A DNA stretch of 24,000 nt from Candidatus Woesearchaeota archaeon (GTDB taxonomy: Archaea; Nanobdellota; Nanobdellia; Pacearchaeales; UBA284). Shown here one piece after another: positions 3,688 through 23,133 of the stretch. The position numbers were made by a program, and so were the translations under genes. Every line of letters begins with the position of its first letter. Within the stretch, counting starts at the first letter, position 1. The DNA lies in contig CAYGZP010000003.1 of the NCBI GenBank assembly GCA_964354405.1, positions 8,666 through 32,665 of the forward strand. The letters are read 5' to 3'. Under the pieces are notes generated by a model, which worked only from the letters and a program-made list of their open reading frames with translations, made no database searches and had not been told where the DNA came from.

Positions 3688-3688
3688 A

Positions 3689-3955
3689 CTATGGGTAAGT
3701 TATTGTTACTTTTACCAAATTTGTGTCGTTTACTGTTGGAGGCTGAGTAGCATACTCAAGTGTTAGTGTTGCTACTAAGACTCCTGCATTTTTGTATAGA
3801 ACAGTCGCAATATTATTTGTGGCACCATAGTAAGTGATGTCAATCTCGTCATATGGCGGGATGTCGAATCCAGTAACTTGTTTCAATTGCTCATAGATAT
3901 TGAAATTCTGTTGATCTGGAGTTAGATTGATAAAGCAGGGTTGAGAGAGTGCCAT
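3689..3955 (-). CDS. hypothetical structural-module protein (88 aa)
   Basis: ORF-track entry. Its stop lies 1 nt from the tail fibre start, and its ATG lies 6 nt downstream of palindromic box copy 2. Confidence 0.6.
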   Translation of the reverse strand: MALSQPCFINLTPDQQNFNIYEQLKQVTGFDIPPYDEIDITYYGATNNIATVLYKNAGVLVATLTLEYATQPPTVNDTNLVKVTITYP

Positions 3956-3961
3956 AATATT

Positions 3962-3977
3962 TTATCGGTTACGATAA
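3962..3977. repeat. palindromic box TTATCGGTTACGATAA (copy 2)
   Basis: Perfect half-sites. The box directly abuts the TAA stop (3978-3980) of the upstream minus-strand gene. Confidence 0.9.
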
Positions 3978-4301: not shown

Positions 4302-4916
4302 TTAGTAGTAGATGCCAACAACGTAGGCATTCACATAGAGTGCGCCAACACGTCCAGCAGTATCAGCACCAGAGGTGACATTCACGCCAGCGTTTGCGTA
4401 GGTGAAGGTGGTCGAGTCAACGACAGTAACTTCAGCCTGCACATCGTTGAACGTAGTGTCGGTCATGCTGGCAATCGTGATCGTGTCACCCGTGGCAAAA
4501 CCATGAGCAGCACCAGTAACGATTGTGGCAACGCCCGAAGTGCGGGAACGAGTTGCGGTAGCTTGACCAGCACCAACAGTAGATTTCAACAAACGAAGTT
4601 TGCGGGAACCAGTGATAACATAAGGATTGGCGGCAATCGCAAGAGGATTGTAGCGGCCTTGGTTATCAAGAGCGTCAGTGATGGTGAGCGAAGAGGTGAT
4701 GTTTTCGCCAGTGGTTCCGTTGTCAACGATCACAATTGGATCGGTGGCAGTAGTTCCGCGAGCGTAGGCAGTCTCCAGCACGATGCTTGTTGGAAAGAAC
4801 TTAGTGTCTTGGTCGTTAAGAACCAAGAGGTCAGCGTCTCCAGCAGCGAGGAGGTTAACGGCAATCGGGCCAAACAAGTTGACACGATCATAAGCGAGTG
4901 GTCGAGAATTAGACAT
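4302..4916 (-). CDS. virion structural protein (204 aa), function unassigned
   Basis: Immediately downstream of the putative capsid gene with similar strong codon bias. The segment GAAHGFATGDTITIASMTDTTFNDVQAEVTVVDSTTFTY resembles a beta-domain motif seen in phage structural and fibre proteins (from memory). Confidence 0.65.
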   Translation of the reverse strand: MSNSRPLAYDRVNLFGPIAVNLLAAGDADLLVLNDQDTKFFPTSIVLETAYARGTTATDPIVIVDNGTTGENITSSLTITDALDNQGRYNPLAIAANPYVITGSRKLRLLKSTVGAGQATATRSRTSGVATIVTGAAHGFATGDTITIASMTDTTFNDVQAEVTVVDSTTFTYANAGVNVTSGADTAGRVGALYVNAYVVGIYY

Positions 4917-10743: not shown

Positions 10744-11418
10744 TTAAATAAGTTGAAGTTCTTCCCACCTCAGTGAGTTTTTTGAATTTTTTTTAAGGTT
10801 TAGTTTTGCTGGCAATACCTGTAAATTTGAAGGTATATGCAATCCTCCCTTTGAAATTGGAATTACATGGTCAACATGAAACTGAATTCCAAATCTTTTT
10901 TCAAGTCTTATTCTTTGCAAGTATATTGTTTCAATAATCAGTTTTTGATTATGCGTCAAATCTGGTGTGTTGTTTTTTTTGGTGGCTCTACGTTTCGCGC
11001 TTCCTTTTCTTAAAAGTAATTTATATCTTTCCGGATTTTCCTTTTTCCAATTTTTAAAATTTTCTTTAGCTTTTACTGAATTTAATTTATTCCACTCCCT
11101 TGAATTTTGCCGATGTTTTTCTGGATTTTTTTTCTTTTGCTCCCGATCTCTTTTTCTAAAAAGATCAATATTGTTTAAACGAGCAATTTTTGTTTTAGCG
11201 AGTTTTTTTAGTCTGTTTTTAGAATACCATTCTCTTTCATATCCCCTACGAGAATTTAAATTTTCATTCCTATTTTTTGTAGACCATTCATTTTGAGATT
11301 TTTTAAGTTCGCAAAATTTTTCTTCAGTAACCCAATATCCTTTTTTGCGAATCAATGCCCAGAAAACCATGCCATCCTCTCGGACATCCCCGCGCTTATA
11401 TTTGATGATGGTTTCCAT
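10744..11418 (-). CDS. HNH endonuclease (224 aa)
   Basis: C-terminal HNH motif FHVDHVIPISKGGLHIPSNLQVLPAKLNLKKN (the DH..P..GG.H..N..N pattern). The N-terminal half is basic and repetitive (W..KNR, RKR, KKN). It is adjacent to the portal and terminase, as packaging-associated HNH proteins are. Confidence 0.8.
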   Translation of the reverse strand: METIIKYKRGDVREDGMVFWALIRKKGYWVTEEKFCELKKSQNEWSTKNRNENLNSRRGYEREWYSKNRLKKLAKTKIARLNNIDLFRKRDREQKKKNPEKHRQNSREWNKLNSVKAKENFKNWKKENPERYKLLLRKGSAKRRATKKNNTPDLTHNQKLIIETIYLQRIRLEKRFGIQFHVDHVIPISKGGLHIPSNLQVLPAKLNLKKNSKNSLRWEELQLI

Positions 11419-11436: not shown

Positions 11437-11805
11437 TTTATTCAAAGCGTTTCTTCGCTTGTTACATGAAGAACATCCGCGAGCTTTATGCTCAAGTTTA
11501 GTTCCTAAAACCTTATCGGTAGCCGCTGCTACAGTGTGGATAGCTTGGGCAATACGATCCCCAAGTCCATCAGCATACCAGCAACGATCACTTGGTTGAC
11601 GCTGGCAGATTTGATCTTCAACCATTTGCTCAATGTTACTTGGCAGTTCAACTCCGTTTGAGCGATAATCCTTTTGGATATTCTGCATCAAGCTACTCCA
11701 TGTGCTTCCGTAAACAATAGCAGGGAATGTGAGTTTATCACGCTTGATCTCATACTTCCAGTAAAAGCCACCGACTGGAGCGAGGTTTTTGTTTTTCAGT
11801 TTCAT
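11428..11805 (-). CDS. hypothetical protein (125 aa), first gene of the leftward late cluster
   Basis: ORF-track entry. It has a C-terminal Cys pair (GCSSCNKRRNALN). No assignable function. Confidence 0.55.
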   Translation of the reverse strand: MKLKNKNLAPVGGFYWKYEIKRDKLTFPAIVYGSTWSSLMQNIQKDYRSNGVELPSNIEQMVEDQICQRQPSDRCWYADGLGDRIAQAIHTVAAATDKVLGTKLEHKARGCSSCNKRRNALNKLS

Positions 11806-11841
11806 CTTGCCTTTCGACGGAAAATATATTTTCTTATTGAT

Positions 11842-13692
11842 ATGTCAAGAGTTTTTTCTTCCAACAAGGGTATTCAGAAATATGGGATGAAGTTCCCAGA
11901 AAACATGGACGAACTTGGAATAGAACTTTATTGCTATGCAATTTCCCGTGGAGAATATGGAAAAGAATACTGCGTTAAGCACAATATTAACCTAACAGAT
12001 TTTAAATTACTCTCTCCATCTGAACATTTCCTTAATGCTGTGAAACTTCAATGGCCGACTGAGGTTTCTATCTACAGTCGAGGATATACGAATACTCAGT
12101 TGGTTAGGACACTGGATGAGTTATGTTCCAATACTGACATCTGTTTAGCAGGCGCGGCTTCGATGGGTAAGTCATTTCCAGTTGCACTTTGGATTTATCT
12201 TGATTGGTGTTCTGCCCCACACTGCACTTCTTCTTGGGTTGCTACAACTACTCTGGGTGCATCTGAAGATCGTATCTGGGGTATCATTTCTAAACTTTGG
12301 AAGTCTGCCAGTGTTCAGTATGGTAAGTTGATCGACTATAGACACATGATTGTTTGGGGAGGCGCATCCAACGACGAAGATAAAGATTATCGTAATGCGA
12401 TAAAAGCTCTCGCTTTTCAGTCTGGTAACGAAGGTCAGAAGGCTATTGATACTACCCGTGGTCGTAAGAATGATCGTGTTCGATTGGCACTTGATGAGTT
12501 GCCCGAAATGGAGTTAGGAGCAATCACTGCTCGCGTTAACCTTTCTGCAAATAACGATATTACATTTATAGGTATCGGAAACCCGTCAGCAGGCGACAAC
12601 CCTCACACTCGTTGGGCAATGCCTAAAGGTCATTCCAACTTCGATTCTGTCAATCCAGACATGATGAAGTGGGATACGGAAACTGGCGTTTGCTTATTCT
12701 ACAACGGCATGAAGTCTCCTAACTTCGCTGCGCCTGCCCATGAACCATCTCCATTTCCGTTTCTGATGGATCGCAAGAAGCAGGAAATAATGCTCAAACA
12801 ATGTTACGGCGATGAAAATGCTATTGACTATGTTCGTAATGCTATCGGTTGGTGGCCGAAAACGGGATTTGCTCAAACTATTCTCACTGCTGATCTCATT
12901 CGTAACGCCGATACGAACGAAGAACCACTTTGGGATTCTGAAGGATTTACTAAGGTAGCAGGATTCGATACCGCATTTACAGTTGGTGGTGATAGATGCG
13001 TTCTGACTATCGCCAAACTTGGGTATGTGCGAGGGACTCGCAATCGTGTTATGTGGCTTGAGAGTCAAAAGGTAATTCAACTATCTGCTAACGCCGCTGC
13101 TGAGTTTGAAATCCAACTGGCTAACGAAGTTGTTGCTTTATGTCGTGCTGCTGGAGTGCAACCATCTAAATTCGGTATGGACGTGTCTGGTGATGGTGGC
13201 CGAGTTGGACAGGCTATTATTCGTGAGTGGCTACGTTTTGATTCCTCTGGAGCCGCAATCGCTCTTATCTCATCTATGGGTAAACCTACTGACCGAATCG
13301 CGGCAGAGGTTGATAAACGCCCGTGTAAGGATGTTTACGATAGGTTGGTATCTGAGTATTACTACTCATGCTATCACGCATTCAAGAGTCGAGTTATTTA
13401 TGGCATTGATCCCGCTTCCGATTTGGCGCGGGAACTTTGCCTTCGCCGATACACGATTAAATCTAAGAAGATCGCCATTGAAACTAAAGATGAGTTGAAG
13501 GGTAGGACTGGTTACTCTCCCGATTTGAGTGACAGCTTGATCTACGCACTCGAAATGGCGCGGCGTAATGGACTCGTATTTATCGGAAACGATAAACCAG
13601 TTCCAACTAACCGATTCTGGGCGCGGGATGAGGTATCAATTGATACCACTCAAGACGATGACTACGGATCAGACGATAACGGAGATTGGTAA
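11842..13692 (+). CDS. terL: terminase large subunit (616 aa from the ATG at 11842)
   Basis: Walker A-like LAGAASMGKS. Walker B-like RVRLALDELPE. RNaseH-like nuclease motifs GFDTAFTVGGDRCV and SPDLSDSLIYALEMA near the C-terminus. The track ORF begins at 11674, but that extension overlaps the divergent 125-aa gene, so I chose the internal ATG at 11842 (MSRVFSS...). Confidence 0.85.
   Translation: MSRVFSSNKGIQKYGMKFPENMDELGIELYCYAISRGEYGKEYCVKHNINLTDFKLLSPSEHFLNAVKLQWPTEVSIYSRGYTNTQLVRTLDELCSNTDICLAGAASMGKSFPVALWIYLDWCSAPHCTSSWVATTTLGASEDRIWGIISKLWKSASVQYGKLIDYRHMIVWGGASNDEDKDYRNAIKALAFQSGNEGQKAIDTTRGRKNDRVRLALDELPEMELGAITARVNLSANNDITFIGIGNPSAGDNPHTRWAMPKGHSNFDSVNPDMMKWDTETGVCLFYNGMKSPNFAAPAHEPSPFPFLMDRKKQEIMLKQCYGDENAIDYVRNAIGWWPKTGFAQTILTADLIRNADTNEEPLWDSEGFTKVAGFDTAFTVGGDRCVLTIAKLGYVRGTRNRVMWLESQKVIQLSANAAAEFEIQLANEVVALCRAAGVQPSKFGMDVSGDGGRVGQAIIREWLRFDSSGAAIALISSMGKPTDRIAAEVDKRPCKDVYDRLVSEYYYSCYHAFKSRVIYGIDPASDLARELCLRRYTIKSKKIAIETKDELKGRTGYSPDLSDSLIYALEMARRNGLVFIGNDKPVPTNRFWARDEVSIDTTQDDDYGSDDNGDW
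13580..13595. repeat. palindromic box TTATCGGAAACGATAA (copy 5, inside terL)
   Basis: Perfect half-sites. It encodes FIGNDK about 100 nt before the terL stop. The 16-mer is identical to copy 8 in the helicase gene but is read in a different frame. Confidence 0.9.
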
Positions 13693-13847: not shown

Positions 13848-13860
13848 GGCCGGGTTAACT
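13848..13860. repeat. 13-bp direct repeat GGCCGGGTTAACT (left copy)
   Basis: Exact match to 14415-14427. It overlaps the stop codon (13855-13857) of the HNH-AP2 gene. Confidence 0.9.
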
Positions 13861-14346
13861 GGTAAATGCGTCACGAAAAGCCATTGCGTCCGTGAGATGC
13901 CTACGATGCGTGTATTTTCGTTGCCCATTACGCTGGACTTGGACTTTCCACCACACTCCCGATTTTCTTGGTATCGTAACTTGTCGAATATTAACCATTT
14001 TGTGGTCGCACCTTTCGGAGTTGATGCAGTTTTCCGATACGGTAGCAATGCGTAAATTTTGTATGCGATTGTCGATTTTTACGCGATTGATGTGATCAAG
14101 AATTCCGTTTGGCCATTCTCCATAAAATAAAACCCATGCTACTCTATGGGCTAACATTTTTTGTCGAACGCCATTATGAAATAATGTTATGGATAAATAT
14201 CCGTGGCCATCACTTGTTCCTGCTGGTTGACCAACTCCTTTTGATGTTGGAACTCCGTTTGATCGAACAGACCCAGCAATCCGAGTGATGATTCCAGTTG
14301 TTGGATTGTAAGAAAAATATTGTCGAATAATTTCAGGTGAGTGCAT
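13855..14346 (-). mobile_element. free-standing HNH-AP2 homing endonuclease gene (163 aa)
   Basis: GYLSITLFHNGVRQKMLAHRVAWVLFYGEWPNGILDHINRVKIDNRIQNLRIATVSENCINS is the classic HNH_3 homing-endonuclease pattern (HR..w...G......DHIN....DNR..NLR). The C-terminal VWWKVQVQRNGQRKYTHRRHLTDAMAFRDAF is AP2-like. It is flanked by 13-bp direct repeats in an otherwise non-coding gap. Confidence 0.8.
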
Positions 14347-14635: not shown

Positions 14636-14863
14636 TCAATCCAGAATACCTTCAAGTTCCAAGGTATTTGCTACTTCTTCTGGCACTACTATACGAATCA
14701 TTTTCTCCCCGTCAAGAAAACCAAGGGTTTCTTTAACGCGAATATCGCTTTTCCTTACCCAACATTGGTTGAATTTCTGAACAAACAGAATTTTTGTTGG
14801 GTTCTCACTTACTTCAATTCCCTCGCAGATTATGCGGGATTCAAACGTGTTACTTGTAGTCAT
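14636..14863 (-). CDS. hypothetical early protein (75 aa)
   Basis: ORF-track entry and last gene of the leftward early operon. Its start overlaps the upstream nuclease gene by 14 nt. Confidence 0.55.
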   Translation of the reverse strand: MTTSNTFESRIICEGIEVSENPTKILFVQKFNQCWVRKSDIRVKETLGFLDGEKMIRIVVPEEVANTLELEGILD

Positions 14864-15149
14864 AAATTAAATATCCTAAATCTCTTGCCCATCCTACTTC
14901 GTGGTGGACTTTGGAGTGGCACGGACGGCAAAGAGCCATGAAAGAGGACTTATCACACAAGAACTTACCCCTCCCTTTTTTGTGATGCAGGTCGCTTGCG
15001 GCTTGGTTGCATATCTCACACTGGTAGTTTTTTTCTTCAAAGTATTCTGTTTTGGCTTTCTCGTAGTCGGCATTCTTTGCTTTTCTTGATCCTGATAAAC
15101 TCTTTAACTTGCCACCCGTTTTTTTGAAACCTTTTTTTCGACTGAGCAT
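14850..15149 (-). CDS. small zinc-finger / HNH-type nuclease (99 aa)
   Basis: CEICNQAASDLHHKKGRGKFLCDKSSFMALCRPCHSKVHH carries the CxxC...HH...CxxCH..H pattern typical of small phage HNH proteins. The N-terminus is lysine-rich. Confidence 0.65.
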   Translation of the reverse strand: MLSRKKGFKKTGGKLKSLSGSRKAKNADYEKAKTEYFEEKNYQCEICNQAASDLHHKKGRGKFLCDKSSFMALCRPCHSKVHHEVGWARDLGYLIYDYK

Positions 15150-15328
15150 TTGTAGTAGTCTGTTAGCTGTTGAAGTCCGAGCGTGGCCAATTCCAGTTCT
15201 TCGTAAATTTCTCTGACTGACTCTGGGAAGGGTTTGCCTCGCTGGTGCATGGTGGTTGGACTGCCTGCTGAGTATGGACTGACTCTGAGGTAGTATTTAC
15301 CTTCTTGGATTTCGAGGAAGACGTGCAT
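15104..15328 (-). CDS. hypothetical protein (74 aa); overlaps both neighbours
   Basis: ORF-track entry with globular-looking sequence (VREIYEELELATLGLQQLTDYY). It overlaps the 3' 166 nt of the HTH ORF and the 5' 46 nt of the nuclease ORF. No SD is visible, so its coding status is uncertain. Confidence 0.35.
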   Translation of the reverse strand: MHVFLEIQEGKYYLRVSPYSAGSPTTMHQRGKPFPESVREIYEELELATLGLQQLTDYYKCSVEKKVSKKRVAS

Positions 15329-15576
15329 AATGCGATTACTTTTTCAACCTGTTCTTTTTTAAGAATGCTCTTGGAGTTTACTTCGATCTGATTGATCAAT
15401 GATCCAGTCACGCCGATCTTGTCTCCAAGTTCTCTGACAGTCAACTTCAGTGTTCTGCGTGTCTCACGAAGTTGGTTAGCAAAAGTCTTTCGTCCAAGAG
15501 AACGAACTGTGCGTGATTGCTCGTAGGCACTCATGCAAGTTTCATAGGCATCTTCTAATGGATGTTTCATTTCCAT
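15163..15576 (-). CDS. XRE-family helix-turn-helix transcriptional regulator (137 aa as drawn)
   Basis: LKLTVRELGDKIGVTGSLINQIEVNSKS matches the HTH_3 pattern (helix, turn, then the S...I..IE recognition helix). It is divergent from the rightward early arm. The last ~55 residues are low-complexity (SSSKSKK..QSQSEK) and overlap another ORF, so the true C-terminus is uncertain. The real start may be the second Met, at 15570. Confidence 0.7.
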   Translation of the reverse strand: MEMKHPLEDAYETCMSAYEQSRTVRSLGRKTFANQLRETRRTLKLTVRELGDKIGVTGSLINQIEVNSKSILKKEQVEKVIALCTSSSKSKKVNTTSESVHTQQAVQPPCTSEANPSQSQSEKFTKNWNWPRSDFNS

Positions 15577-15578
15577 AA

Positions 15579-15607
15579 AAAATAAACCAAGAGTATTGAC
15601 AAGTCAA
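15579..15607 (-). promoter_or_regulatory. leftward sigma70-like promoter (TTGACT-17-TATTTT)
   Basis: On the minus strand the -35 TTGACT is at 15607-15602, the spacer is 17 nt, and the -10 TATTTT is at 15584-15579. The predicted TSS near 15572 is 1-2 nt before the second Met codon (15570) of the HTH gene, implying a near-leaderless mRNA. Confidence 0.5.
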
Positions 15608-15624
15608 CACTTTTTTGATACTAT
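15596..15624 (+). promoter_or_regulatory. rightward sigma70-like promoter (TTGACA-17-TACTAT)
   Basis: The -35 TTGACA is at 15596-15601, the spacer is exactly 17 nt, and the -10 TACTAT is at 15619-15624. The predicted TSS near 15631 is 2 nt before the ATG at 15633. Confidence 0.55.
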
Positions 15625-16276: not shown

Positions 16277-16549
16277 ATGATTATTAAACGTAATACATTC
16301 ACATTGGTAGAAACACGTCACTTAGATAACATCAAATTATCTGTATCCGGAATTGGTTTATTAACTCACATCACAAGATGGACAGAAGATAACCTTAATA
16401 TAGAGCAGATATTAGATCGCATATACGACATGAGTCACCATGATCCAAGTGCAGCAATCGGATACTTGGAACTTTTGAAAGAAGAAATCATTGAGAATTT
16501 TTTTTCTGAACAAGAATTACAATCAATTCAAGCCTTAGCTGAAGTATGA
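16277..16549 (+). CDS. hypothetical protein (90 aa from the ATG at 16277)
   Basis: ORF-track frame starting at 16205 (a GTG). I chose the internal ATG (MIIKRNTFTLVETRH...). Its stop overlaps the next start (ATGA at 16546). Confidence 0.5.
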   Translation: MIIKRNTFTLVETRHLDNIKLSVSGIGLLTHITRWTEDNLNIEQILDRIYDMSHHDPSAAIGYLELLKEEIIENFFSEQELQSIQALAEV

Positions 16550-17520
16550 AACCGAAAAAACTTGGAAGACTTATTTTAAAGGAAGAGTTGTTCGCTATCA
16601 CTGGATGCTTGGAGGAAGCGATAATCCTAAACCAAATGTGTTATTGGTCGGAAAGAATGAATGAAACAGATAAGTTTTTGGAGGAAGAATACACAATGCT
16701 GGTCGAACACGTCCCTGTATTATCCCACGGATGGATATACAAGTCCGCATCTGAACTGGCTGGTGAAATGTTTGGAGCCGTGAGTGAGAAAACAATGAAT
16801 CGAATATTGGATCGGTTGGTAAAAAAGAATTTTCTTCGTCGCAGATTCAATCCTAATCCGAAGTATAAGTTTGATAAAACATATCACTATCGCGTGAACT
16901 TTGTTGAAATCATGTGCCATTTAAAAAATAAAAAGATGCCATTGAGTGGTTATCATATTATTGAGGAGTTTGTAAACAGACTTGAACAAGGTGTCGCTCC
17001 GAAGCGTCATTTTGACGGATCGGAGAATCATTCTGACGGAGCAATACCAGAGACTATAACAAAAACTACTGACAAAGAAAAACCCCTAACCCCTTTGCAA
17101 GGGGAAGAGGAAAGTTCGGCAATGGCCTCACATTCCTCGGAAGTAGTAACTCAACCAAATCTATTCTCGACTAACCCAAGTGAAGCTAACGCTTCGGGTT
17201 CGGCTATCGCCAAACTGAACTCTGCCGATGGCAATGGAACTACCCCCCCAATTCCGCTCGCCCCCCCACGAACTATCCCGACCGAATTGGATACTCCAGA
17301 ATTCAACGCTGCTTGGAATGAATTCCTTCAACACCGAAAGGAAAAGAAATCTCCAATGACACCAACCGCAAAAAATAATATGTTCCGCAAGTTCACAACT
17401 TGGGGAGTAGAGAACGCAGTCGTTGCAATCGACGCTGCAATCTCAAACGGGTGGACTGGAGTTTTCGAACCAAAACAAAACAAGTCCAATTCAAAACCAG
17501 AACGACTTTGCAGCATTTGA
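16546..17520 (+). CDS. putative replication initiator / replisome-organiser-like protein (324 aa)
   Basis: The N-terminal region (EEAIILNQMCYWSE...GWIYKSASELAGEMFGAVSEKTMNRILDRLVKKNFL) looks like a winged-helix DNA-binding domain. The C-terminal TPEFNAAWNEFLQHRKEKKSPMTPTAKNNMFRKFTTWGVENAVVAIDAAISNGWTGVF resembles the conserved C-terminal module of phage replication proteins (from memory). It lies upstream of the helicase. Confidence 0.55.
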   Translation: MKPKKLGRLILKEELFAITGCLEEAIILNQMCYWSERMNETDKFLEEEYTMLVEHVPVLSHGWIYKSASELAGEMFGAVSEKTMNRILDRLVKKNFLRRRFNPNPKYKFDKTYHYRVNFVEIMCHLKNKKMPLSGYHIIEEFVNRLEQGVAPKRHFDGSENHSDGAIPETITKTTDKEKPLTPLQGEEESSAMASHSSEVVTQPNLFSTNPSEANASGSAIAKLNSADGNGTTPPIPLAPPRTIPTELDTPEFNAAWNEFLQHRKEKKSPMTPTAKNNMFRKFTTWGVENAVVAIDAAISNGWTGVFEPKQNKSNSKPERLCSI

Positions 17521-17561: not shown

Positions 17562-18314
17562 ATGAATGAGCTACACTTATTTGCTGGAGCAGGGGGAGGA
17601 ATCCTCGGCGGGATGCTTCTCGGACATACCACAGTCTGTGCTGTCGAACTTGAACCTTACTGCCGAAAAGTCCTACTCCAAAGACAACGAGACGGAATCC
17701 TGCCTAAGTTCCCAATCTGGGATGATGTCACAACTTTCGACGGAACTCCGTGGAGAGGAAAAGTCGATGTCGTTTGCGGAGGATTCCCTTGCCCGGATTT
17801 CTCCAATGGAAATCAAAAGGAAAGTAGATTCACAGGACTACAAGGAAACAGGGGAGGACTATGGTTTGAAATGTTTAGGATTATATGCGAAATACGACCC
17901 AAGCTCGTCTTCGTGGAAAATGTGCCAAACCTCATTAAATTTGGGATTGGAACAGTCCTCGGAAATTTGGTCGAAAGCGGGTATAATTCAAGATGGTGTT
18001 TGTTGGGAAGCAAGGATTGCGAAGGAGTTCATAAAAGAGATAGAGCATGGATTCTCGCTACTCACCCCAACATCGACAGACTACAAGAGAAACAACCTAT
18101 CGACTCCAATGTGGGAAAGAAGAATGAAACAAAGGAAGTCTCCGGGGACACTACCAGAGCAATTGGCTTGGATGGGATTCAAGGGTATGTTAGCCCCCAC
18201 ATTGCCGGAAAAAATGATGAGATGGCCAATTGGCTGGACAGGTTTAAAGCAGTTGGAAATGGGCAGGATGCAAGCGTGGCTGCAACAGCATGGAGAATAC
18301 TTGGAGGAGAATAA
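17562..18314 (+). CDS. DNA (cytosine-5) methyltransferase, compact (250 aa)
   Basis: Motif I LFAGAGGG. Motif IV GGFPCPDFS with the catalytic Cys. Motif VI ENVPNL. Motif VIII-like GVHKRDRAWILA. Motif X-like RFKAVGNGQ. All are in the canonical order. Confidence 0.85.
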   Translation: MNELHLFAGAGGGILGGMLLGHTTVCAVELEPYCRKVLLQRQRDGILPKFPIWDDVTTFDGTPWRGKVDVVCGGFPCPDFSNGNQKESRFTGLQGNRGGLWFEMFRIICEIRPKLVFVENVPNLIKFGIGTVLGNLVESGYNSRWCLLGSKDCEGVHKRDRAWILATHPNIDRLQEKQPIDSNVGKKNETKEVSGDTTRAIGLDGIQGYVSPHIAGKNDEMANWLDRFKAVGNGQDASVAATAWRILGGE

Positions 18315-18318
18315 ATGA
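17566..18318 (+). other. second complete 250-codon ORF in the +1 frame of the methyltransferase gene (candidate overlapping gene)
   Basis: The ORF track shows an uninterrupted 250-aa translation, MSYTYLLEQGEESSAGCFSDIP...MMRWPIGWTGLKQLEMGRMQAWLQQHGEYLEENK. Its ATG is 4 nt after the MTase ATG, and its TGA is 4 nt after the MTase TAA and overlaps the helicase ATG. Coding status is unproven. Confidence 0.35.
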
Positions 18319-19547
18319 AAAAAGTCCCAATAGCACGAAAGAGTGAAGCCGCAGCATTGTCGCTGATAGCAATCGACAGAAACATACTTTCCCAACAAAC
18401 ATGGGATAGTGGTTATTTCGCCATAAACGCCAACAGGCTCGTTTTTGAAGCTCTCCAAGGGGTTCACCAGCGGACAGGCGTTTGTTGCCCGTTCTCTGCC
18501 ATCGCAGAGTTGGAAGCTACAGGAAAGTTGGATGCGGCGGGTGGTGAAGAATCTGTCCACGACACATTACGCACGATGAACGTAGCTTCGGGTAAGGTTT
18601 GCCAAGACATGGCTGACGATTATCGGAAGCACCTGCACCGCACAAAATCATACCGCGATGTCATTACACTTTTCGAGAAGGAAGAACCAAACCTACGGAC
18701 AGGTAAGACAAATCTGAAGGAATTATCGGAAACGATAATGAACTCTGCCGAAGATCGGACGACAAAAGTAAAACCAGTCAAAGACCTCATCATCGAAATC
18801 ATTGATGAGATGGAAGGTAAAGCTGTAAAGGAATTCTTTCCTACTGGATTACTCAAAGTAGATCGTGCGCTCAAGGGTGGAATGCACAAAGGAGAGATGA
18901 TGACAGTAGCTTCAGAGACTGGTGGTGGTAAATCCATCTACCTCGTCCAAGCGGCACTCGCTAACCTGCAAGATGGAAAGTCAGTTCTCTTCTTCAGCCT
19001 CGAAATGAAAGCGAAGGACATCCTAACTCGTATGGCTTGTAACTTGGCAGGCTACCCCGTGCGTGAACCAGAGGATTACAAGAACGCAAACCAACACGAA
19101 CTCCTAAAAATCAACTCTGCATTGTTGCAATTACACAAGTTACCCATCGAAATCGTGGATGGAGTAGCCGAAATTGACGAGATTGAGGCCCAAATCAACC
19201 GATATGTAGGAGAAAATCGGGCAGATGTAATCGTCGTAGATTACCTACAAATCATCTCATCTGACGGGGAAGAAGGCAGAGAAAGTCAGATTTCGGAGAT
19301 TGCAAGGAGGCTAAAACTCGCAGCACTGAAGAATAACTCGATTATGCTGACTGCTTCACAACTAAACGACGAGGGAAGACTACGCGAATCACGGGCAATT
19401 GGAATGCACTCTGACCAAGTAGTGTATATCGAACACATCAAGGAGAAGAGTAGGCTGACAATCAAGAAGAACCGCCGTGGTGCGAGGAACTACATGACAG
19501 AAATCGTCATGCGTGGTGACATCTCAAAACTTGAGGAGGTTTACTAA
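18315..19547 (+). CDS. dnaB: DnaB-family replicative DNA helicase (410 aa)
   Basis: The N-terminal SEAAALSLIAIDRNIL matches the DnaB N-domain opening. Walker A ASETGGGKS. FFSLEM. Walker B DVIVVDYLQI. LTASQLNDEGR matches the SQLnR motif. Confidence 0.9.
   Translation: MKKVPIARKSEAAALSLIAIDRNILSQQTWDSGYFAINANRLVFEALQGVHQRTGVCCPFSAIAELEATGKLDAAGGEESVHDTLRTMNVASGKVCQDMADDYRKHLHRTKSYRDVITLFEKEEPNLRTGKTNLKELSETIMNSAEDRTTKVKPVKDLIIEIIDEMEGKAVKEFFPTGLLKVDRALKGGMHKGEMMTVASETGGGKSIYLVQAALANLQDGKSVLFFSLEMKAKDILTRMACNLAGYPVREPEDYKNANQHELLKINSALLQLHKLPIEIVDGVAEIDEIEAQINRYVGENRADVIVVDYLQIISSDGEEGRESQISEIARRLKLAALKNNSIMLTASQLNDEGRLRESRAIGMHSDQVVYIEHIKEKSRLTIKKNRRGARNYMTEIVMRGDISKLEEVY
18723..18738. repeat. 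palindromic box TTATCGGAAACGATAA (copy 8, inside dnaB)
   Basis: Perfect half-sites. It encodes LSETI(M). The 16-mer is identical to copy 5 in terL but is read in a different frame. Confidence 0.9.
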
Positions 19548-19741
19548 TGAATATTGACCAAGCCTATGGAAAATCCATGATGTTTTTCAAGTATGCACTA
19601 GACATCTGGGAGTCTGAAGACAAAGAAAGATATTGCATTGCAGAAAATTACTGGAGTGAGGGAATGAAAATCTACGATGAGTATTTTTCTAATAAAAAAA
19701 TATTGACGCAGATACAAGATGTAGATACGATGCTTCCATGA
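19547..19741 (+). CDS. hypothetical protein (64 aa)
   Basis: ORF-track entry. Its start overlaps the dnaB stop (TAATG) and an SD-like GAGGAGG lies upstream. Confidence 0.55.
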   Translation: MNIDQAYGKSMMFFKYALDIWESEDKERYCIAENYWSEGMKIYDEYFSNKKILTQIQDVDTMLP

Positions 19742-20001
19742 ATAACACAGAAACAATAATCAAATACCTCAAGCTCTACAACGAGTGGAGGCGCGGCGAT
19801 GAAAAGATGGGACAACCCAATCCTACTGAGATTGGAAAGTTGATTGATGAAGCGTGTGAAATGCTTATTTCATTAGAACGCGAGCGCGACGAGGCGCGGG
19901 AGGCATTGATGGCATTTAACCATGATAAAAAACACCTTTGCGATTCACACAAAGACATGATCGGAAATTGCATGGTTTGCAGCATGAATGAAACAAAATG
20001 A
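19738..20001 (+). CDS. small ERERDEA-motif protein, array member 1 (87 aa)
   Basis: Contains LISLERERDEAREALMAF. The N-terminal YNEWRRGDEKMGQPNPTEIGKLIDEA resembles a small phage protein family I recall. It has ATGA overlaps at both ends. Confidence 0.65.
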   Translation: MNNTETIIKYLKLYNEWRRGDEKMGQPNPTEIGKLIDEACEMLISLERERDEAREALMAFNHDKKHLCDSHKDMIGNCMVCSMNETK

Positions 20002-20189
20002 ACAAATATTTAACATACTTGCCAACTGAATGTCTTATGGCATTCTGTATTATATTATTATTTACTTGGGCTTTCGCAGTTTCGTTTCAACGCGATAACC
20101 TAAAAAAGCAAGCAGTCGAAAGAGGTTTTGCTGAATGGGTTTGCGACTCCTCTGGGAATACAACTTGGAGGTGGAAAGAAACAAAATGA
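19998..20189 (+). CDS. small membrane protein (63 aa) embedded in the array
   Basis: One clear hydrophobic helix (CLMAFCIILLFTWAFAVSF). It ends in KETK like its neighbours and has ATGA overlaps at both ends. Confidence 0.55.
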   Translation: MNKYLTYLPTECLMAFCIILLFTWAFAVSFQRDNLKKQAVERGFAEWVCDSSGNTTWRWKETK

Positions 20190-20455
20190 ATAATACATCA
20201 GCATCAAAAACAGATAGATTAATGTGCAATGTTTCTGCCGACTTTGCACGCAAGCTGAAATTCGAACGAGACGAAGCGATGGAGGCGCTGGATAAAATGT
20301 CGGCCTACATACAAAAAATTACTGGCAGTTGCCCATATGAGTGCTTTGACGCTGAACCTCATTCACATCCATGTAGTGAGGTTTGCGACAATTTTACAGA
20401 TAAAATAAACGAATGCTGGAAAAAACATTTTTTAAAAAATGCAATCGAGCTTTGA
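20186..20455 (+). CDS. small ERDEA-motif protein, array member 2 (89 aa from the ATG at 20186)
   Basis: ADFARKLKFERDEAMEALDKM followed by a Cys/His-rich tail (CPYECFDAEPHSHPCSEVC). The start was chosen at the ATGA junction with the upstream gene. Confidence 0.6.
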   Translation: MNNTSASKTDRLMCNVSADFARKLKFERDEAMEALDKMSAYIQKITGSCPYECFDAEPHSHPCSEVCDNFTDKINECWKKHFLKNAIEL

Positions 20456-20639
20456 ACGCAGTCGGGACGAGGTTGAAAAGTTGATACGCGAACGTGACGA
20501 GGCGCAGGGATTGTTACGCATTTTGGCGGGTCTTGTTGCCTACGGCCTTGGTCAGTCAGGTGAGGAGTGGTCGCTGGAGGCCATGCGCCAAGCGACGACC
20601 GCAATTCAAAATGCAAAATCTTTGGAGGAGACAAAATGA
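20439..20639 (+). CDS. small ERDEA-motif protein, array member 3 (66 aa)
   Basis: ERSRDEVEKLIRERDEAQGLLRIL. It ends in LEETK, and the next start follows at an ATGA overlap. Confidence 0.55.
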   Translation: MQSSFERSRDEVEKLIRERDEAQGLLRILAGLVAYGLGQSGEEWSLEAMRQATTAIQNAKSLEETK

Positions 20640-20983
20640 TTGAATTACCTACACCGGAGACGGATGCGAGTTGTGGATATGCTCTGTCCAGTCACTACGG
20701 GCGGCTTGAGGGGAGCTATCTGCAAATGGATCGGAGTGGTCCGTTTGTTCATGCAGAGGTAGCCCGCAAACTGGAGCGCGAGCGTGACGAGGCGAGGGAG
20801 GCTTTGAAGCGGATAGACGAAGCGATATTGGTAATGAAGCCAAGACATATCGGACAACCCGATATGGATGGGAGGTATCCATGTTGGTCGGTGTGGCTAC
20901 CAAAAAGCGGTAGGGTCGAAAGGAAGAGCCTGCAAGATGCCCTTTTAGAGTTTGCCGCACAAATTAAGGAGGCCGTAAAATGA
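20636..20983 (+). CDS. small TPETDA/ERERDEA-motif protein, array member 4 (115 aa from the ATG at 20636)
   Basis: MIELPTPETDA...VHAEVARKLERERDEAREALKRIDEA. The start was chosen at the ATGA junction, preceded by GGAGGAG. Confidence 0.65.
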   Translation: MIELPTPETDASCGYALSSHYGRLEGSYLQMDRSGPFVHAEVARKLERERDEAREALKRIDEAILVMKPRHIGQPDMDGRYPCWSVWLPKSGRVERKSLQDALLEFAAQIKEAVK

Positions 20984-21339
20984 GCAGCACCATACCAAAG
21001 GCGGATGCGGTTGAAGCTAAACGCCGAGCTGAATGGCTACACAAACACAAAGCGCACAAAGACTGGATTATTTTATCTGTGTCAGAGGTTGCTGTTATTC
21101 GTGACGAGCTGTTGATTCTCGAACGCGAGCGCGACGAGGCGCGGGAGCAAGCCCAAAGGTTGCGAGTCCAATTAAACCATTACACGCAAGCAAATGAAAT
21201 GGCAGAACAAGCCTTCCGTGAACGAGACGAATCGCACAAAATTGCGAAGCGAGCGATTGATGATTTAGCATGGTTCAACCAAACAAATGCACAGAGACTC
21301 CGCAATGAACTTGACCAACTGAAGGAGGCCACGAAATGA
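20980..21339 (+). CDS. small ERERDEA-motif coiled-coil protein, array member 5 (119 aa)
   Basis: LLILERERDEAREQAQRLRVQL plus a second degenerate copy, FRERDESHKIAKRAI. It has ATGA junctions at both ends. Confidence 0.65.
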   Translation: MSSTIPKADAVEAKRRAEWLHKHKAHKDWIILSVSEVAVIRDELLILERERDEAREQAQRLRVQLNHYTQANEMAEQAFRERDESHKIAKRAIDDLAWFNQTNAQRLRNELDQLKEATK

Positions 21340-21557
21340 GCGAGCGACCAACACCAGAGACGGATGCGGCGAGGCACGACTTGAGCGATTACGGCTCACC
21401 CGTGCCTTGCTCTTGGGGAGATTGGATTCATGCCGATGTAGCCAGCAAACTGGAACGCGAGCGTAACGATTACAAGTGGCAGTTGCATATAGCTAAAGGA
21501 GAAATCGCAGAAGCAAGAAAAATGGAAAGAGCATGGAAAAAGGAGGAAACAAAATGA
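21336..21557 (+). CDS. small TPETDA/ERERN-motif protein, array member 6 (73 aa)
   Basis: MSERPTPETDA...HADVASKLERERNDYKWQL. Its 5' 32 nt are 31/32 identical to the next gene. Confidence 0.65.
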   Translation: MSERPTPETDAARHDLSDYGSPVPCSWGDWIHADVASKLERERNDYKWQLHIAKGEIAEARKMERAWKKEETK

Positions 21558-21817
21558 GCGAGCGACCAACACCTGAGACGGATGCCTTCAGCGGAAACAT
21601 GGGTGACTGCATCAAGTTTGCCGAAAAACTTGAACGCGAACGCGACGAGGCGCGGGAGGCATTCAAGATAGTTTACAACGAGCGAGTCCAAATGGAACTT
21701 GAGCGAGACGAATGGAAAAACAAAGCATACTCTCATGCTACAGACTACACTCTAATGGAAGCGAAGTGCTTTAGATTGGAACAACAACTCAAAGAATATG
21801 ATAAACTCAAGAGCTAA
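21554..21817 (+). CDS. small TPETDA/ERERDEA-motif protein, array member 7 (87 aa from the ATG at 21554)
   Basis: MSERPTPETDAFSG...FAEKLERERDEAREAFKIV plus a second ELERDEW copy. The start was chosen at the ATGA junction, preceded by AAGGAGG. Confidence 0.65.
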   Translation: MSERPTPETDAFSGNMGDCIKFAEKLERERDEAREAFKIVYNERVQMELERDEWKNKAYSHATDYTLMEAKCFRLEQQLKEYDKLKS

Positions 21818-22127
21818 AGGCGCAAGAGGTGAGCGGCAGTGGAGAGATCAACTCCGCGCCGAAGGCTACACTGCTAAACGAGGACAGCAATTCGCAGGAG
21901 GACAAGAATCACCAGATGTGGTCTGTGAAGAACTGAAAGGTAAACTCCACTTTGAAGTTAAGTGCGTTCAGAATTTGAATCTTGATAAGGCTTGCGAACA
22001 GGCCGAGCGAGATGCTAAAGGCATTGCTTGGGCCGTGGCTCACAAGAAAAACAATAAGAACTGGAAGGTAACAATCCCTGCTGACCTGTTCTTTAAATTA
22101 CTCAGGGATGGAAGTGACGGACTATGA
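21798..22127 (+). CDS. PD-(D/E)XK-type nuclease, Holliday-junction-resolvase-like (109 aa)
   Basis: SRAKGARGERQWRDQLRAEGYTAKRG...PDVVCEE...LHFEVKC matches the KG..ER......G.....D(V)...E(V)K layout of Hjc/archaeal-type resolvase-like phage nucleases (from memory). Confidence 0.6.
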   Translation: MINSRAKGARGERQWRDQLRAEGYTAKRGQQFAGGQESPDVVCEELKGKLHFEVKCVQNLNLDKACEQAERDAKGIAWAVAHKKNNKNWKVTIPADLFFKLLRDGSDGL

Positions 22128-22309
22128 AACCAAAAACTAAAGCAGGTAAGGCCGCGAAAGTGGCTAAAATCATGGGCGAATACAAGCGTGGAACTCTCCA
22201 TGCTGGTATCAACCCTAAAGGCCCGAAGAAAGCACCAATGGCTAAGAGCCGCAAACAGGCATTGGCAATTGCATTATCACGTGCGGGAATGGCTAAGAAA
22301 AGTAAGTAA
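22124..22309 (+). CDS. small lysine-rich protein (61 aa)
   Basis: MGEYKRGTLHAGINPKGPKKAPMAKSRKQALAIALSRAG resembles a conserved bacterial/phage small-protein family (E[FY]K.G.L.SG......SRKQAIAIALSEA) that I recall as a DUF. It has an ATGA overlap with the upstream gene. Confidence 0.6.
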   Translation: MKPKTKAGKAAKVAKIMGEYKRGTLHAGINPKGPKKAPMAKSRKQALAIALSRAGMAKKSK

Positions 22310-22310
22310 T

Positions 22311-22457
22311 ATGAAAACAGGACTTTACGCTAATATCAACGCCAAACGGAAACGCATCGCAGCGGGTAGCGGTGAGAAGATGAGGAAGGTTGGTAGCAAA
22401 GGCGCACCAACTGCAAAGGCATTTAAACAATCAGCAAAAACTGCGAAGAAAAAGTAG
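22311..22457 (+). CDS. small lysine-rich protein (48 aa from the ATG at 22311)
   Basis: MKTGLYANINAKRKRIAAGSGEKMRKVGSKGAPTAKAFKQSAKTAKKK. The start codon lies 1 nt after the upstream stop. The track ORF (22188) overlaps the previous gene, so the internal ATG is preferred. Confidence 0.5.
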   Translation: MKTGLYANINAKRKRIAAGSGEKMRKVGSKGAPTAKAFKQSAKTAKKK

Positions 22458-22495
22458 TTATAACAAGTTTAGTGAGTTTACAAAAAACTTATAAT

Positions 22496-22720
22496 ATGGA
22501 AAAGAGATTTACGAAAGTAGTCAAGAATGCCAAAACTGGTAGGACTAAGACAGTCAAGTATGGTCAGAAAGGTGCGACAATCTCTCCGGGATCAAAGCGT
22601 GGCGATTCCTACTGCGCCCGTTCAGCTAAGATCAAAGGTGATTGGAAATCCGATCCCAACTCCCCAAACAACCTTTCGCGCAAGAAGTGGCGTTGCAAAG
22701 GTAGCAAGTCAATGAAATGA
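22496..22720 (+). CDS. small basic protein (74 aa from the ATG at 22496)
   Basis: KTVKYGQKGATISPGSKRGDSYCARSAKIKGDWKSDPNSPNNLSRKKW resembles a small conserved phage/viral family (G..g..i.pg...gdSYCARS) that I recall as a DUF. The start could be the GTG at 22472 or the ATG at 22496. Confidence 0.55.
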   Translation: MEKRFTKVVKNAKTGRTKTVKYGQKGATISPGSKRGDSYCARSAKIKGDWKSDPNSPNNLSRKKWRCKGSKSMK

Positions 22721-22878
22721 AAATTAACGGAAAAAATGCTGAGAGCAATGTTGATCTGAATGATGGTCGAGTAGGATGGAAATATCCACTCAACTCCAAA
22801 CAGATCAGCAAGCCTGCGAAGACTTCTTCAAGAAGCGTGGAATGAAACAATACGATTGCGCTGGCAGACCTAAGAAAA

Positions 22879-23133
22879 ATGACGTGTCCAAAATGTGAAT
22901 CACCTACCGAAGTCATCAATAGTAGAAAGAGAGATGGCACAGTAGTAAGGAGGAGGCTTTGTGCCTGTGGAGAAAGGTTTTCAACCAAAGAAGTAATTAC
23001 TGATTCAAGGAAAGTTACTTTCAAAAAGATAGTTAAAGCACTATCCACGACTAAAGCAGTCACTGGAGAGTGGACAGTAAAAGTAGATAAAAATACCCCC
23101 GATTGGGCAAGGAAAATGCTAATTAACCTATGA
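22879..23133 (+). CDS. NrdR-like zinc-ribbon protein without ATP-cone (84 aa)
   Basis: MTCPKCESPTEVINSRKRDGTVVRRRLCACGERFSTKEV parallels the NrdR N-terminus (M.CP.C.....V.DSR.......RRRR.C..C..RFTT.E). No ATP-cone domain follows. Confidence 0.65.
   Translation: MTCPKCESPTEVINSRKRDGTVVRRRLCACGERFSTKEVITDSRKVTFKKIVKALSTTKAVTGEWTVKVDKNTPDWARKMLINL

Follow-up and report, generated by a model that had tools for sequence, protein, structure and literature searches.

When several neighbouring small genes of a phage share one short charged motif, have they diverged from a common ancestor by duplication, or have they been put together from separate pieces around that motif? We have studied this question in a 24,000-nt stretch of contig CAYGZP010000003.1 (the window), which is a segment of an uncultured phage genome. 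Here, between the genes of a DnaB helicase and a Holliday-junction resolvase, eight coupled small open reading frames (ORFs) occupy positions 19738-21817, and seven of them contain a core of the type (L)ERERDEAREA. As judged by sequence comparison, the array members are mosaics of interchangeable pieces and not a simple paralogue expansion, and the family of small early phage proteins to which the array belongs is very large, highly mosaic, and without annotation. We consider it probable that the core is an in-frame recombination connector, placed inside a stable helix, which drives the combinatorial shuffling of early accessory proteins.

Composition of the array

An earlier description made from the letters of the DNA (the sequence-only reading) had listed the eight ORFs with their sizes, their ATGA overlaps, a single 17-nt overlap, and the motif of each member, and we find all of these exactly as first described. 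The seven core-bearing ORFs, all on the + strand, are called m1 to m7 here. m1 (19738-20001, 87 aa) consists of a YNEWRRG-type head, the connector, and a Cys/His tail; its core (ERERDEAREA; GAACGCGAGCGCGACGAGGCGCGGGAGGC) at 19876-19904 is identical over 28-32 nt to cores of the related loci L051 and L009, and its motif LERERDEAREAL is also present in m4. m2 (20186-20455, 89 aa from the ATGA-coupled start) has a degenerate head (SKTDR), a ARKLKFERDEAMEAL core at 20258-20284 with the motif FERDEAMEAL, and a Cys/His-rich tail. m3 (20439-20639, 66 aa) carries IRERDEAQGL, with the core at 20484-20510, and overlaps m2 by 17 nt. m4 (20636-20983, 115 aa) has a TPETDA head, a connector whose core at 20774-20802 fits the back-translated pattern, and a small beta/alpha tail. 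In m5 (20980-21339, 119 aa), a degenerate TPETDA head (IPKADA) is followed by the connector, with the core motif LERERDEAREQA at 21121-21149, and by a coiled-coil tail, and there is a second motif, FRERDESHK (FRERDES at 21214-21234). m6 (21336-21557, 73 aa) joins a TPETDA head to the degenerate core LERERNDYK (21453-21479). m7 (21554-21817, 87 aa) has a TPETDA head, a connector at 21632-21660 with the motif LERERDEAREAF, a second motif LERDEW (21698-21715), and a tail.

The start MxxxPTPETDA is seen in m4, m6, and m7, where the core is preceded by ARKLE, ASKLE, and AEKLE, respectively, as the sequence-only reading had noted. Beyond the core, only these three members can be aligned with each other in the window, and more weakly m2 (m2 against m4, E 1e-5). 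The motif is not a random one: the 29-nt back-translated core pattern has four matches in the window at no more than 3 mismatches, against 0.00 in 100 shuffles, and ERDEA occurs in the window in the array only.

m3 differs from the others in its beginning. It begins at a Met within a module which, in longer relatives (the L030 protein ...REAWYEMQSSFERSRDEVEELIRERDE...), has an internal position, and this start is preceded by an A/T-rich region without a Shine-Dalgarno (SD) sequence. m3 is probably a truncated remnant, and it looks like the scar of a rearrangement that used no connector.

Mosaic organisation of the family

We have compared m4 with its relatives. Most of the 101 database matches cover only the first or the last half of the protein, at 75-98% identity. 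The m4-type head (TPETDAS...ARKLERERDEA) continues into dozens of different sequences, and the m4-type tail (ALK.IDEAI..KPRHIG...) is preceded by differing heads or by inserted middle modules; the junction always lies at (E)RERDEAR(E). The same mosaic pattern is found for the motif-bearing ORFs of 40 viral contigs, which often form tandem arrays of 3-6 genes. Chimeras related to m5 are carried by L020 and L009, and the proteins P0106 and P0112 are head/tail variants of m6.

For a quantitative view, 178 non-redundant proteins were split at the core and the pieces were clustered, which gave 447 modules in 253 clusters. The 64 members of the m4-head cluster are followed on the right by 48 different neighbours, and the 11 members of the m4-tail cluster are preceded on the left by 10. 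Of the 26 clusters that contain three or more members, 25 show two or more different partners on a side. As this sample is biased towards relatives of m4, the search was repeated with m1, whose head (YNEWRRG...PNPTEIGKLIDEA) is unrelated to the TPETDA heads. The m1-type head is joined to many tails, some of which, including the m7 tail, are also found on TPETDA proteins, and the Cys/His tail of m1 is found behind TPETDA heads as well. Therefore unrelated heads share one exchange network through the same connector. The sequence-only reading had taken the seven genes as diverged members of one family; the shared core is real, but what surrounds it are unrelated heads and tails swapped via one connector, and not diverged paralogues. 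Its view of a diversifying family is supported, and the diversification is strong.

An independent replicate comes from the exact 23-mer GAGCGCGACGAGGCGCGGGAGGC, present 55 times in 54 metagenome contigs. Of these instances 54 are family-like, and together the 55 fall into 38 left-flank and 34 right-flank clusters with 44 combinations, and one right module stands behind 5 different left modules. In addition, a head-plus-core profile retrieves 2817 representative clusters at E <= 1e-3, many of them with 2-6 core stretches. One retrieved protein, P0138 (954 aa, 14 stretches), is a false positive, an unrelated tandem-repeat protein. Two complete head-plus-core units in a single polypeptide are seen in P0105, P0110, P0135, P0086, and P0087, which appear to be adjacent genes fused across the gene-junction block described below.

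At the protein level, 51% of the ends lie within 6 aa of a core, against 26% for random positions, a signal that is blurred by the extension of high-scoring segment pairs and by the m4-biased sample. The module graph and the DNA-level comparison are more convincing.

Uniformity of the connector at the DNA level

The core is near-uniform at its synonymous sites, reading GAG CGC GAC GAG GCG CGG, with a consensus ending GAG. We have collected 119-128 ERDEA instances by translation, from about 45 loci with a G+C content (GC) of 39-65%, and compared the codons with the synonymous usage elsewhere in the same genes. D is encoded by GAC in 94% (background 49%), E by GAG in 95% (48%), A by GCG in 87% (28%), R1 by CGC in 75% (32%), and R5 by CGG in 64% (14%). 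The bias holds in the 89 non-seed instances (GAC 84, GAG 84, GCG 79, CGC at R1 67). It depends on the position: R5 is CGG or AGG in 64 of 75 non-seed instances (84% overall) and is CGC in about 1-4% (1/75 non-seed, 4/109 overall), while CGC is used at R(-1) and R1. For the flanking K, L, E(-2), A(+7), and L(+8), the residues are conserved and the codon entropy is near the background.

The codon bias of the core is equal in the three GC classes of contigs (38-47, 47-55, and 55-66%). All seven wobble bases of the core are G or C, in a genome of 44% GC. In 508 kb, all 117 matches of the 18-nt core at no more than 2 mismatches read ERDEAR in open frames. The sequence-only reading had seen in the core a common interaction helix; the common motif stands, but it is as much a DNA feature as a peptide one, in view of the uniform silent sites and of the joints inside the core reported below.

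A second conserved connector is found at the gene starts. The block at the m3/m4 junction (20622-20667, + strand, as are the other two copies) comprises the SD, a spacer, ATGA, and the codons of M..PTPETDA, and belongs to a repeat family (D3) whose reference copy is the m5/m6 junction block (21322-21367); the m6/m7 block (21540-21585) is 91% identical to the latter. This gene-start block (SD, spacer, ATGA, ...ACA CCA GAG ACG GAT GCG) is similarly uniform, and across 44 instances of TPETDA the codons ACA, GAG, and GAT account for 86%, 86%, and 80%, respectively.

We have also observed that the DNA encoding the shared C-terminal (K/E)E(T/A)K tails is at the same time the SD, spacer, and ATGA from which the next gene starts (AAGGAGGnnACnAAATGA). 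Such dual-coding sites lie at 19984-20001, 20172-20189, 20622-20639, 20966-20983, 21322-21339, and 21540-21557, and the endings EETK, EGAK, and EEAK dominate among the relatives. The ends of these proteins are therefore shaped by a translation-initiation signal, i.e., by a dual-coding constraint.

DNA homology joints between phages

If modules have been exchanged at the connector, DNA homology between phages should begin or end there. We have aligned the array with related loci by blastn and counted the internal ends of blocks of at least 60 nt. Cores and junction blocks make up 40% of the region, and 40 of the 46 internal ends lie within 6 nt of one of them (p = 5e-11), and so do 31 of the 36 distinct ends (p = 1e-8). 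This clustering is the pattern one would expect if similarity switches partners inside the conserved blocks.

The individual blocks are as follows. At the m4 core, block 20651-20801 (L051, 90%; also L042) ends, and blocks 20776-20985 (L050, 94%) and 20779-21012 (L012) start. At the m5 core, block 20994-21147 (L020) ends and 21127-21369 (L009) starts, and at the m3 core, 20437-20500 (L030) ends and 20490-20604 (L020) starts. The blocks to L013 and L039 start at the m5/m6 junction block and end at 21469 in the m6 core region. In m7, block 21626-23000 (L009) starts at the first core, while 21701-22308 (L050) and a block from 21701 (L052) start at the second motif.

L052 has a gene whose first part corresponds to the m1 head (window 19741-19892, 93% identity) and whose second part corresponds to the m7 tail (from 21701); the resolvase follows directly. 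The block of homology to the m1 head ends in the m1 core, and the head and tail blocks overlap by 11 nt in GAGCGAGACGA. This fusion is the product predicted for an exchange between two cores. L052 also has, at 62-160, an extra short ORF (MTYETRTVKV...) between g0, the small ORF next to DnaB, and the m1-type head; it is missing from the window, and therefore the left edge of the slot is variable too.

Plasticity, selection, and structure

Between DnaB and the resolvase, L015 and L051 have 1 family ORF each, L050 has 5, L009 has 6, and the window has 7; this number varies even where DnaB is 96-97% identical. Other contigs carry 3-4 family ORFs, and many phages have a single copy of the core. So the multi-copy array, which had been thought unusual, is not exceptional among these phages.

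For pairs of modules from different phages, the ratio of non-synonymous to synonymous differences (pN/pS) is 0.03-0.39, with pS up to 0.41. This result reveals that the proteins are under purifying selection, that the ORFs are genuine coding genes, and that modules can be old while the adjoining core stays uniform.

The AlphaFold model of m1 (predicted local distance difference test, pLDDT, 82) has two helices, a first one at 3-18 and a long one at 29-70 in which the core reaches a pLDDT above 90, followed by a short Cys/His knuckle. The model of m4 (pLDDT 65) has a hairpin, a helix at 40-67 that contains the core, and a small beta/alpha tail. According to these models, the core is a salt-bridged helical segment rich in E, R, and D, which should tolerate arbitrary neighbours.

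The profile and structure searches suggested by the sequence-only reading have assigned no array member to a known family. Pfam, PHROGs, NCBIfam, and PADLOC give no significant match for any of them, a PDB profile search gives weak Prp19 coiled-coil noise only (E 0.019), and Foldseek finds no fold match in PDB (m4 model, best E 1.8) or BFVD (m1 model, best E 0.23). For similarity to defence or anti-defence proteins, PADLOC and the fold searches returned nothing; a library dedicated to anti-defence proteins was not searched. No paper with the motif strings was found in the literature searched, and a search on phages of Verrucomicrobia gave nothing relevant.

A model of exchange at the connector

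Based on the above analyses, we propose the following model. Each protein consists of a head (M..PTPETDA with a variable segment, or an unrelated one of the YNEWRRG type), a connector, and variable middle and tail modules, where the connector is one or more copies of the charged helical (L)ER-ERDEAR-E(AL). Two blocks are conserved as DNA, namely the core of the connector, which is about 18-29 nt long, and the gene-start block. Because all cores have the same orientation and are read in the same codons, recombining one with another would give an in-frame chimera, and within the array it would also yield a deletion or a duplication. The partners might be copies in the same array, or copies in co-infecting or resident phages. 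Since a long salt-bridged helix extends on both sides of the connector, a junction there can probably be accommodated with any partner modules. The array would then be both a product of and a substrate for the shuffling of modules in an accessory slot between the replication genes and the resolvase.

The exchanges may proceed by homologous or short-homology recombination, or by template switching, at these blocks. The near-identical stretch shared between cores is 20-32 nt long, which is close to the minimal homology that is reported to be needed for efficient recombination in E. coli and by phage annealases. The uniformity of the core may be kept by repeated exchange or gene conversion, or because recombinability itself is selected. 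If many copies are exchanged again and again, concerted evolution would keep their cores alike, and the wobble sites might be biased towards G or C. As for the proteins, they may be early accessory factors whose variable modules contact changing targets of the host or of rivals.

On the other hand, several points weigh against this model. BLAST blocks tend to run on into whatever conserved sequence they meet, so that the clustering of ends at cores and junctions is inflated, and the instances are phylogenetically related, so that the binomial p-values are overstated. All the evidence for recombination is comparative, and no event has been directly observed. The tail of L052 is only 79% identical to m7, and L052 is therefore no direct derivative of the window phage. 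In the orthologous pair of m4 and L051, the core differs at 4 of 28 nt, which is no better than the flank (90%), therefore the core is not invariably protected. No phage recombinase was identified among the scanned ORFs of the window, and the exchange would therefore depend on the host or on phage genes that lie elsewhere. Furthermore, the peptide itself is conserved, and its ARKLE flank is conserved with free codons; a function of the helix at the protein level is therefore also likely, and may be the primary constraint.

Alternative explanations

The last point leads to the strongest rival, in which everything happens at the protein level. ERERDEAREA would then be a functional helix for coiled-coil formation, oligomerisation, or target binding, kept by selection on the peptide; the mosaicism would be a passive by-product of a repeated sequence, and the uniform codons would come from recent common descent of the motif. 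Much of the data fits: the peptide is conserved across contigs of 39-65% GC, the adjoining ARKLE and REAL residues are conserved while their codons are free, the core lies in a confidently predicted long helix (in m1, pLDDT above 90), many proteins have several copies of it, and the heptad-like spacing A-3, L0, A7, L11, as read from the sequence, fits a coiled coil. What this explanation leaves unaccounted for is the position-specific choice of codons (CGC at R1 in 75%, CGG/AGG at R5 in 84%, and CGC there in about 1-4%), its independence of the GC of the contig, and the silent-site freedom of neighbouring residues that are conserved too. Nor would one expect, from this explanation alone, to find the ends of DNA homology blocks within the core. 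The protein-level explanation is probably true in part, and is compatible with the connector model; that it is the whole explanation seems unlikely to us.

The connector model can also be carried further. The core might be a selected recombination signal or hotspot, e.g., Chi-like, or read by recombination functions of the phage or the host, in a helix that is structurally neutral. We regard this as quite unlikely. It is compatible with the data because the uniformity is independent of GC, the codons are position-specific, the wobble bases are G or C, and the length of homology is near the minimum. If it were true, each phage would carry a combinatorial generator of new in-frame early proteins, working at high frequency within populations. 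The array would be a protein-level cassette system for counter-defence or host takeover, kept by second-order selection for evolvability.

A cis-acting nucleic-acid signal that overlaps the coding sequence is very improbable. Such a signal could be a set of replication iterons next to the helicase gene, an operator, a site of methylation, a structured RNA, or an SD-like GGGAGG within the gene that paces or restarts ribosomes. It would agree with the nucleotide-level conservation of the core, with the location beside the replication genes, and with the presence of GCGC and CGCG in the core downstream of a C5 methyltransferase gene. It does not agree with the finding that 117 of 117 copies are in one frame on the coding strand and none is intergenic, or with the single copy in many phages. 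The spacing in the window is irregular (226-511 nt), unlike that of iterons, which are direct repeats phased regularly at about 20 bp, as a rule beside an AT-rich region and without regard to reading frame, and together with the single frame and the single-copy relatives it has led us to reject iterons of a replication origin; an operator or inverted-repeat switch is ruled out by spacing, frame, and orientation. An RNA element is rejected as well. The folding of six cores with their flanks gives z-scores from -2.1 to +1.1 and no common structure, Rfam has no match, and the CGCG/CGCG stem lacks compensatory changes (CGA co-occurs with GCA), i.e., there is no covariation.

As for the SD-like sequence, the codons of R5 and E6 do give GGGAGG within the coding sequence of most core copies, e.g., at 19897-19904 and 21653-21660, and R5 is xGG in 84% of the core instances. 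No start codon stands at a consistent, suitable distance after it. A workable distance to an ATG is found in m1 only, and an internal start is rejected as a general feature.

A diversity-generating retroelement, which has a reverse transcriptase with template and variable repeats, or a shufflon, which has inverted repeats and its own site-specific recombinase, is rejected too: no reverse transcriptase or recombinase domain is present in the scanned ORFs of the window, and all copies of the core are direct repeats. The only two inverted pairs, of 13-14 nt, have no relation to the core. Finally, that the motif is a low-complexity charged patch arisen by chance in small ORFs of separate origin, or that the ORFs are no genes at all, deserves practically no credence, for although the motif is made of common helix-forming charged residues and no family database recognises the proteins, there are zero matches in shuffles, thousands of relatives, pN/pS values of 0.03-0.39, and conserved starts with SD and ATGA coupling.

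Comparison with known systems

In the tail-fibre adhesins of T-even phages, recombination at the His boxes of gp37 has been described (Tetart et al. 1998, as cited in PMC3157838), and glycine-rich motifs (GRMs) separate the hypervariable segments (HVSs) of gp38 (Trojet et al. 2011, PMC3157838). There, as in the array, short conserved in-frame motifs flank variable segments (the ERDEAR cores separate 253 clusters of modules), and exchange at the motifs gives new combinations with frame and scaffold intact; the joints of the array likewise appear to map to its motifs. Unlike gp37 and gp38, which are receptor-binding proteins of the virion with known function, the array encodes small proteins of an early operon. 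The array proteins have no tail-fibre match in Pfam or PHROG, and their genes lie between DnaB and the resolvase. The array connector also differs in being a single charged helix motif common to unrelated heads and tails, in thousands of proteins and in several genes per phage, and in having uniform silent sites across hosts of very different GC.

The promoter-early stem-loop (PeSL) cassettes shuffle modules in the hyperplastic regions of T4-type phages (Arbiol et al. 2010, PMC2839356). As in the array, repeated conserved blocks flank small non-essential ORFs in a plastic region, recombination between the copies inserts, deletes, or replaces genes, and gene content differs between close relatives. 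A PeSL is about 100 bp long, is intergenic, contains a sigma-70 early promoter and a stem-loop terminator, and moves whole genes, whereas the blocks of the array are 18-46 nt long, lie within genes or in coupled junctions, and would shuffle parts of proteins in frame. Promoter-like and terminator-like sites in the array are not above the expectation from shuffles, and none stands at the junction blocks.

In the classical view of modular phage evolution, short linker or boundary sequences at the borders of modules are proposed as guides of homologous exchange. In lambdoid phages, such boundary sequences lie between genes and are weakly supported statistically, whereas the connector of the array is intragenic, translated, and quantitatively tied to the joints. 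In position, the array may be likened to the nin region of lambdoid phages, where small coupled accessory ORFs also lie between replication genes and a Holliday-junction resolvase; a nin-like position, between replication genes and RusA/terminase, is seen in the prophage L046 too. For homology to Nin, Ren, or Orf proteins, there is no match in Pfam, PHROG, or NCBIfam. Single alpha-helices rich in E, R, and K are known as long spacers without fixed sequence. The core resembles them in its alternating E/D and R and in being predicted as part of one long helix, and differs in being a fixed motif of 9-12 residues with fixed codons.

Overall, by analogy, the array may work like the motif exchange of T-even phages and the shuffling by PeSLs, but it belongs to neither. 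What is new is an intragenic, translated, universal connector, common to unrelated modules across a very large uncharacterised family. The mosaicism of phages is usually ascribed to rare illegitimate joints that are filtered by selection, and to our knowledge, the idea of exchange guided by conserved linkers has so far had few clean examples. The array would be a clean and quantifiable one: its connector, 18-29 nt long and translated, recurs in thousands of proteins and in several genes of each phage, and the joints fall on it. The system could serve as a natural standard for the in-frame joining of protein modules, and as a tractable system to measure the homology needed by phage recombination. 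In addition, it brings to light an early-gene family that had no annotation and comprises about 2,800 representative clusters, all from phages not in culture. Since its combinations turn over fast, its members are candidates for host-interaction or counter-defence functions.

Genome setting and host

The window is called phage because it carries, beside the array operon, a gene of the large terminase subunit (11674-13692, + strand) and three HNH endonuclease genes. A repressor-like gene (15163-15576, - strand; phrog_8) faces the rightward operon, which fills the + strand from 15627 onward, and divergent promoter-like sites lie between the two at 15579-15624. On the + strand follow an O-like replication initiator (16546-17520), a C5 cytosine methyltransferase (17562-18314), and the DnaB-like replicative helicase (18315-19547; Pfam DnaB_C, 2.4e-30), which is the left anchor of the variable slot. 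The location of the array within an early operon, as first supposed, is thus supported.

The operon holds ten short ORFs linked by stop/start overlaps: g0, m1, the membrane ORF, m2-m7, and the resolvase. All junctions in the array are ATGA overlaps except that of m2 and m3, and the coupled chain runs on upstream, through DnaB and g0, and downstream into the resolvase, which overlaps m7 by 20 nt. g0 (19547-19741, + strand) lacks the core and is not a family member; its region (19600/19604-19741/19749) has about 73-77% nucleotide identity in L050, L051, L009, and L015. The right anchor (21798-22127, + strand) is a Holliday-junction resolvase of the PD-(D/E)XK type (phrog_244, 2.3e-17; weak matches to Hjc and PDDEXK_15). 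In the same four syntenic relatives, the protein identity is 68-97% for DnaB and 89-99% for the resolvase.

Among 50,697 GenBank records of phages, there is no cultured relative, by blastn of the region or by tblastn of two family proteins. A contig identical to that of the window is present in a public run (L041). The genome-borne relatives are all in metagenome-assembled genomes of Verrucomicrobiota (Terrimicrobiaceae, Verrucomicrobiales). One of them, L046, is a prophage of Terrimicrobiaceae in a 432-kb contig, and this integrated relative points to Verrucomicrobiota as the host of the window phage. The phages of this family appear to infect freshwater Verrucomicrobiota.

The ORF interleaved between m1 and m2 (19998-20189, + strand, 63 aa) encodes a single-pass membrane protein without the core, which ends in KETK like the family members. 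It is 46% identical (E 8e-14) to an ORF at 9762-10004 of L046, in the same relative place. Its pattern (...RGFAEW...G.TTW.WKE) is kept in that 58% GC Terrimicrobiaceae prophage, again just upstream of a TPETDA gene, and 5194-5265 of L009 belongs to the same comparison. One automatic gene call on L041 skipped this ORF and chose a longer start for m2.

Where the C5 methyltransferase gene lies, phages that are otherwise syntenic have another variable cassette site. In the interval from the replication initiator to DnaB, the window has this gene, L050 has an N6/N4 methyltransferase (3305-3964), and L051 is empty (4413-4420). The match of the window protein is confined to positions 3-176 of the 324 in the Pfam model, its first half. 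A second open frame of 250 codons (17566-18318, + strand), offset by 4 nt, runs over the whole gene; a frameshifted gene is rejected, as we have found no evidence of it and no Pfam match for 17566-18318. Around the large terminase gene, the three HNH endonuclease genes lie separately on the - strand, at 10744-11418, 13855-14346, and 14850-15149, where a single terminase-associated HNH gene would be usual.

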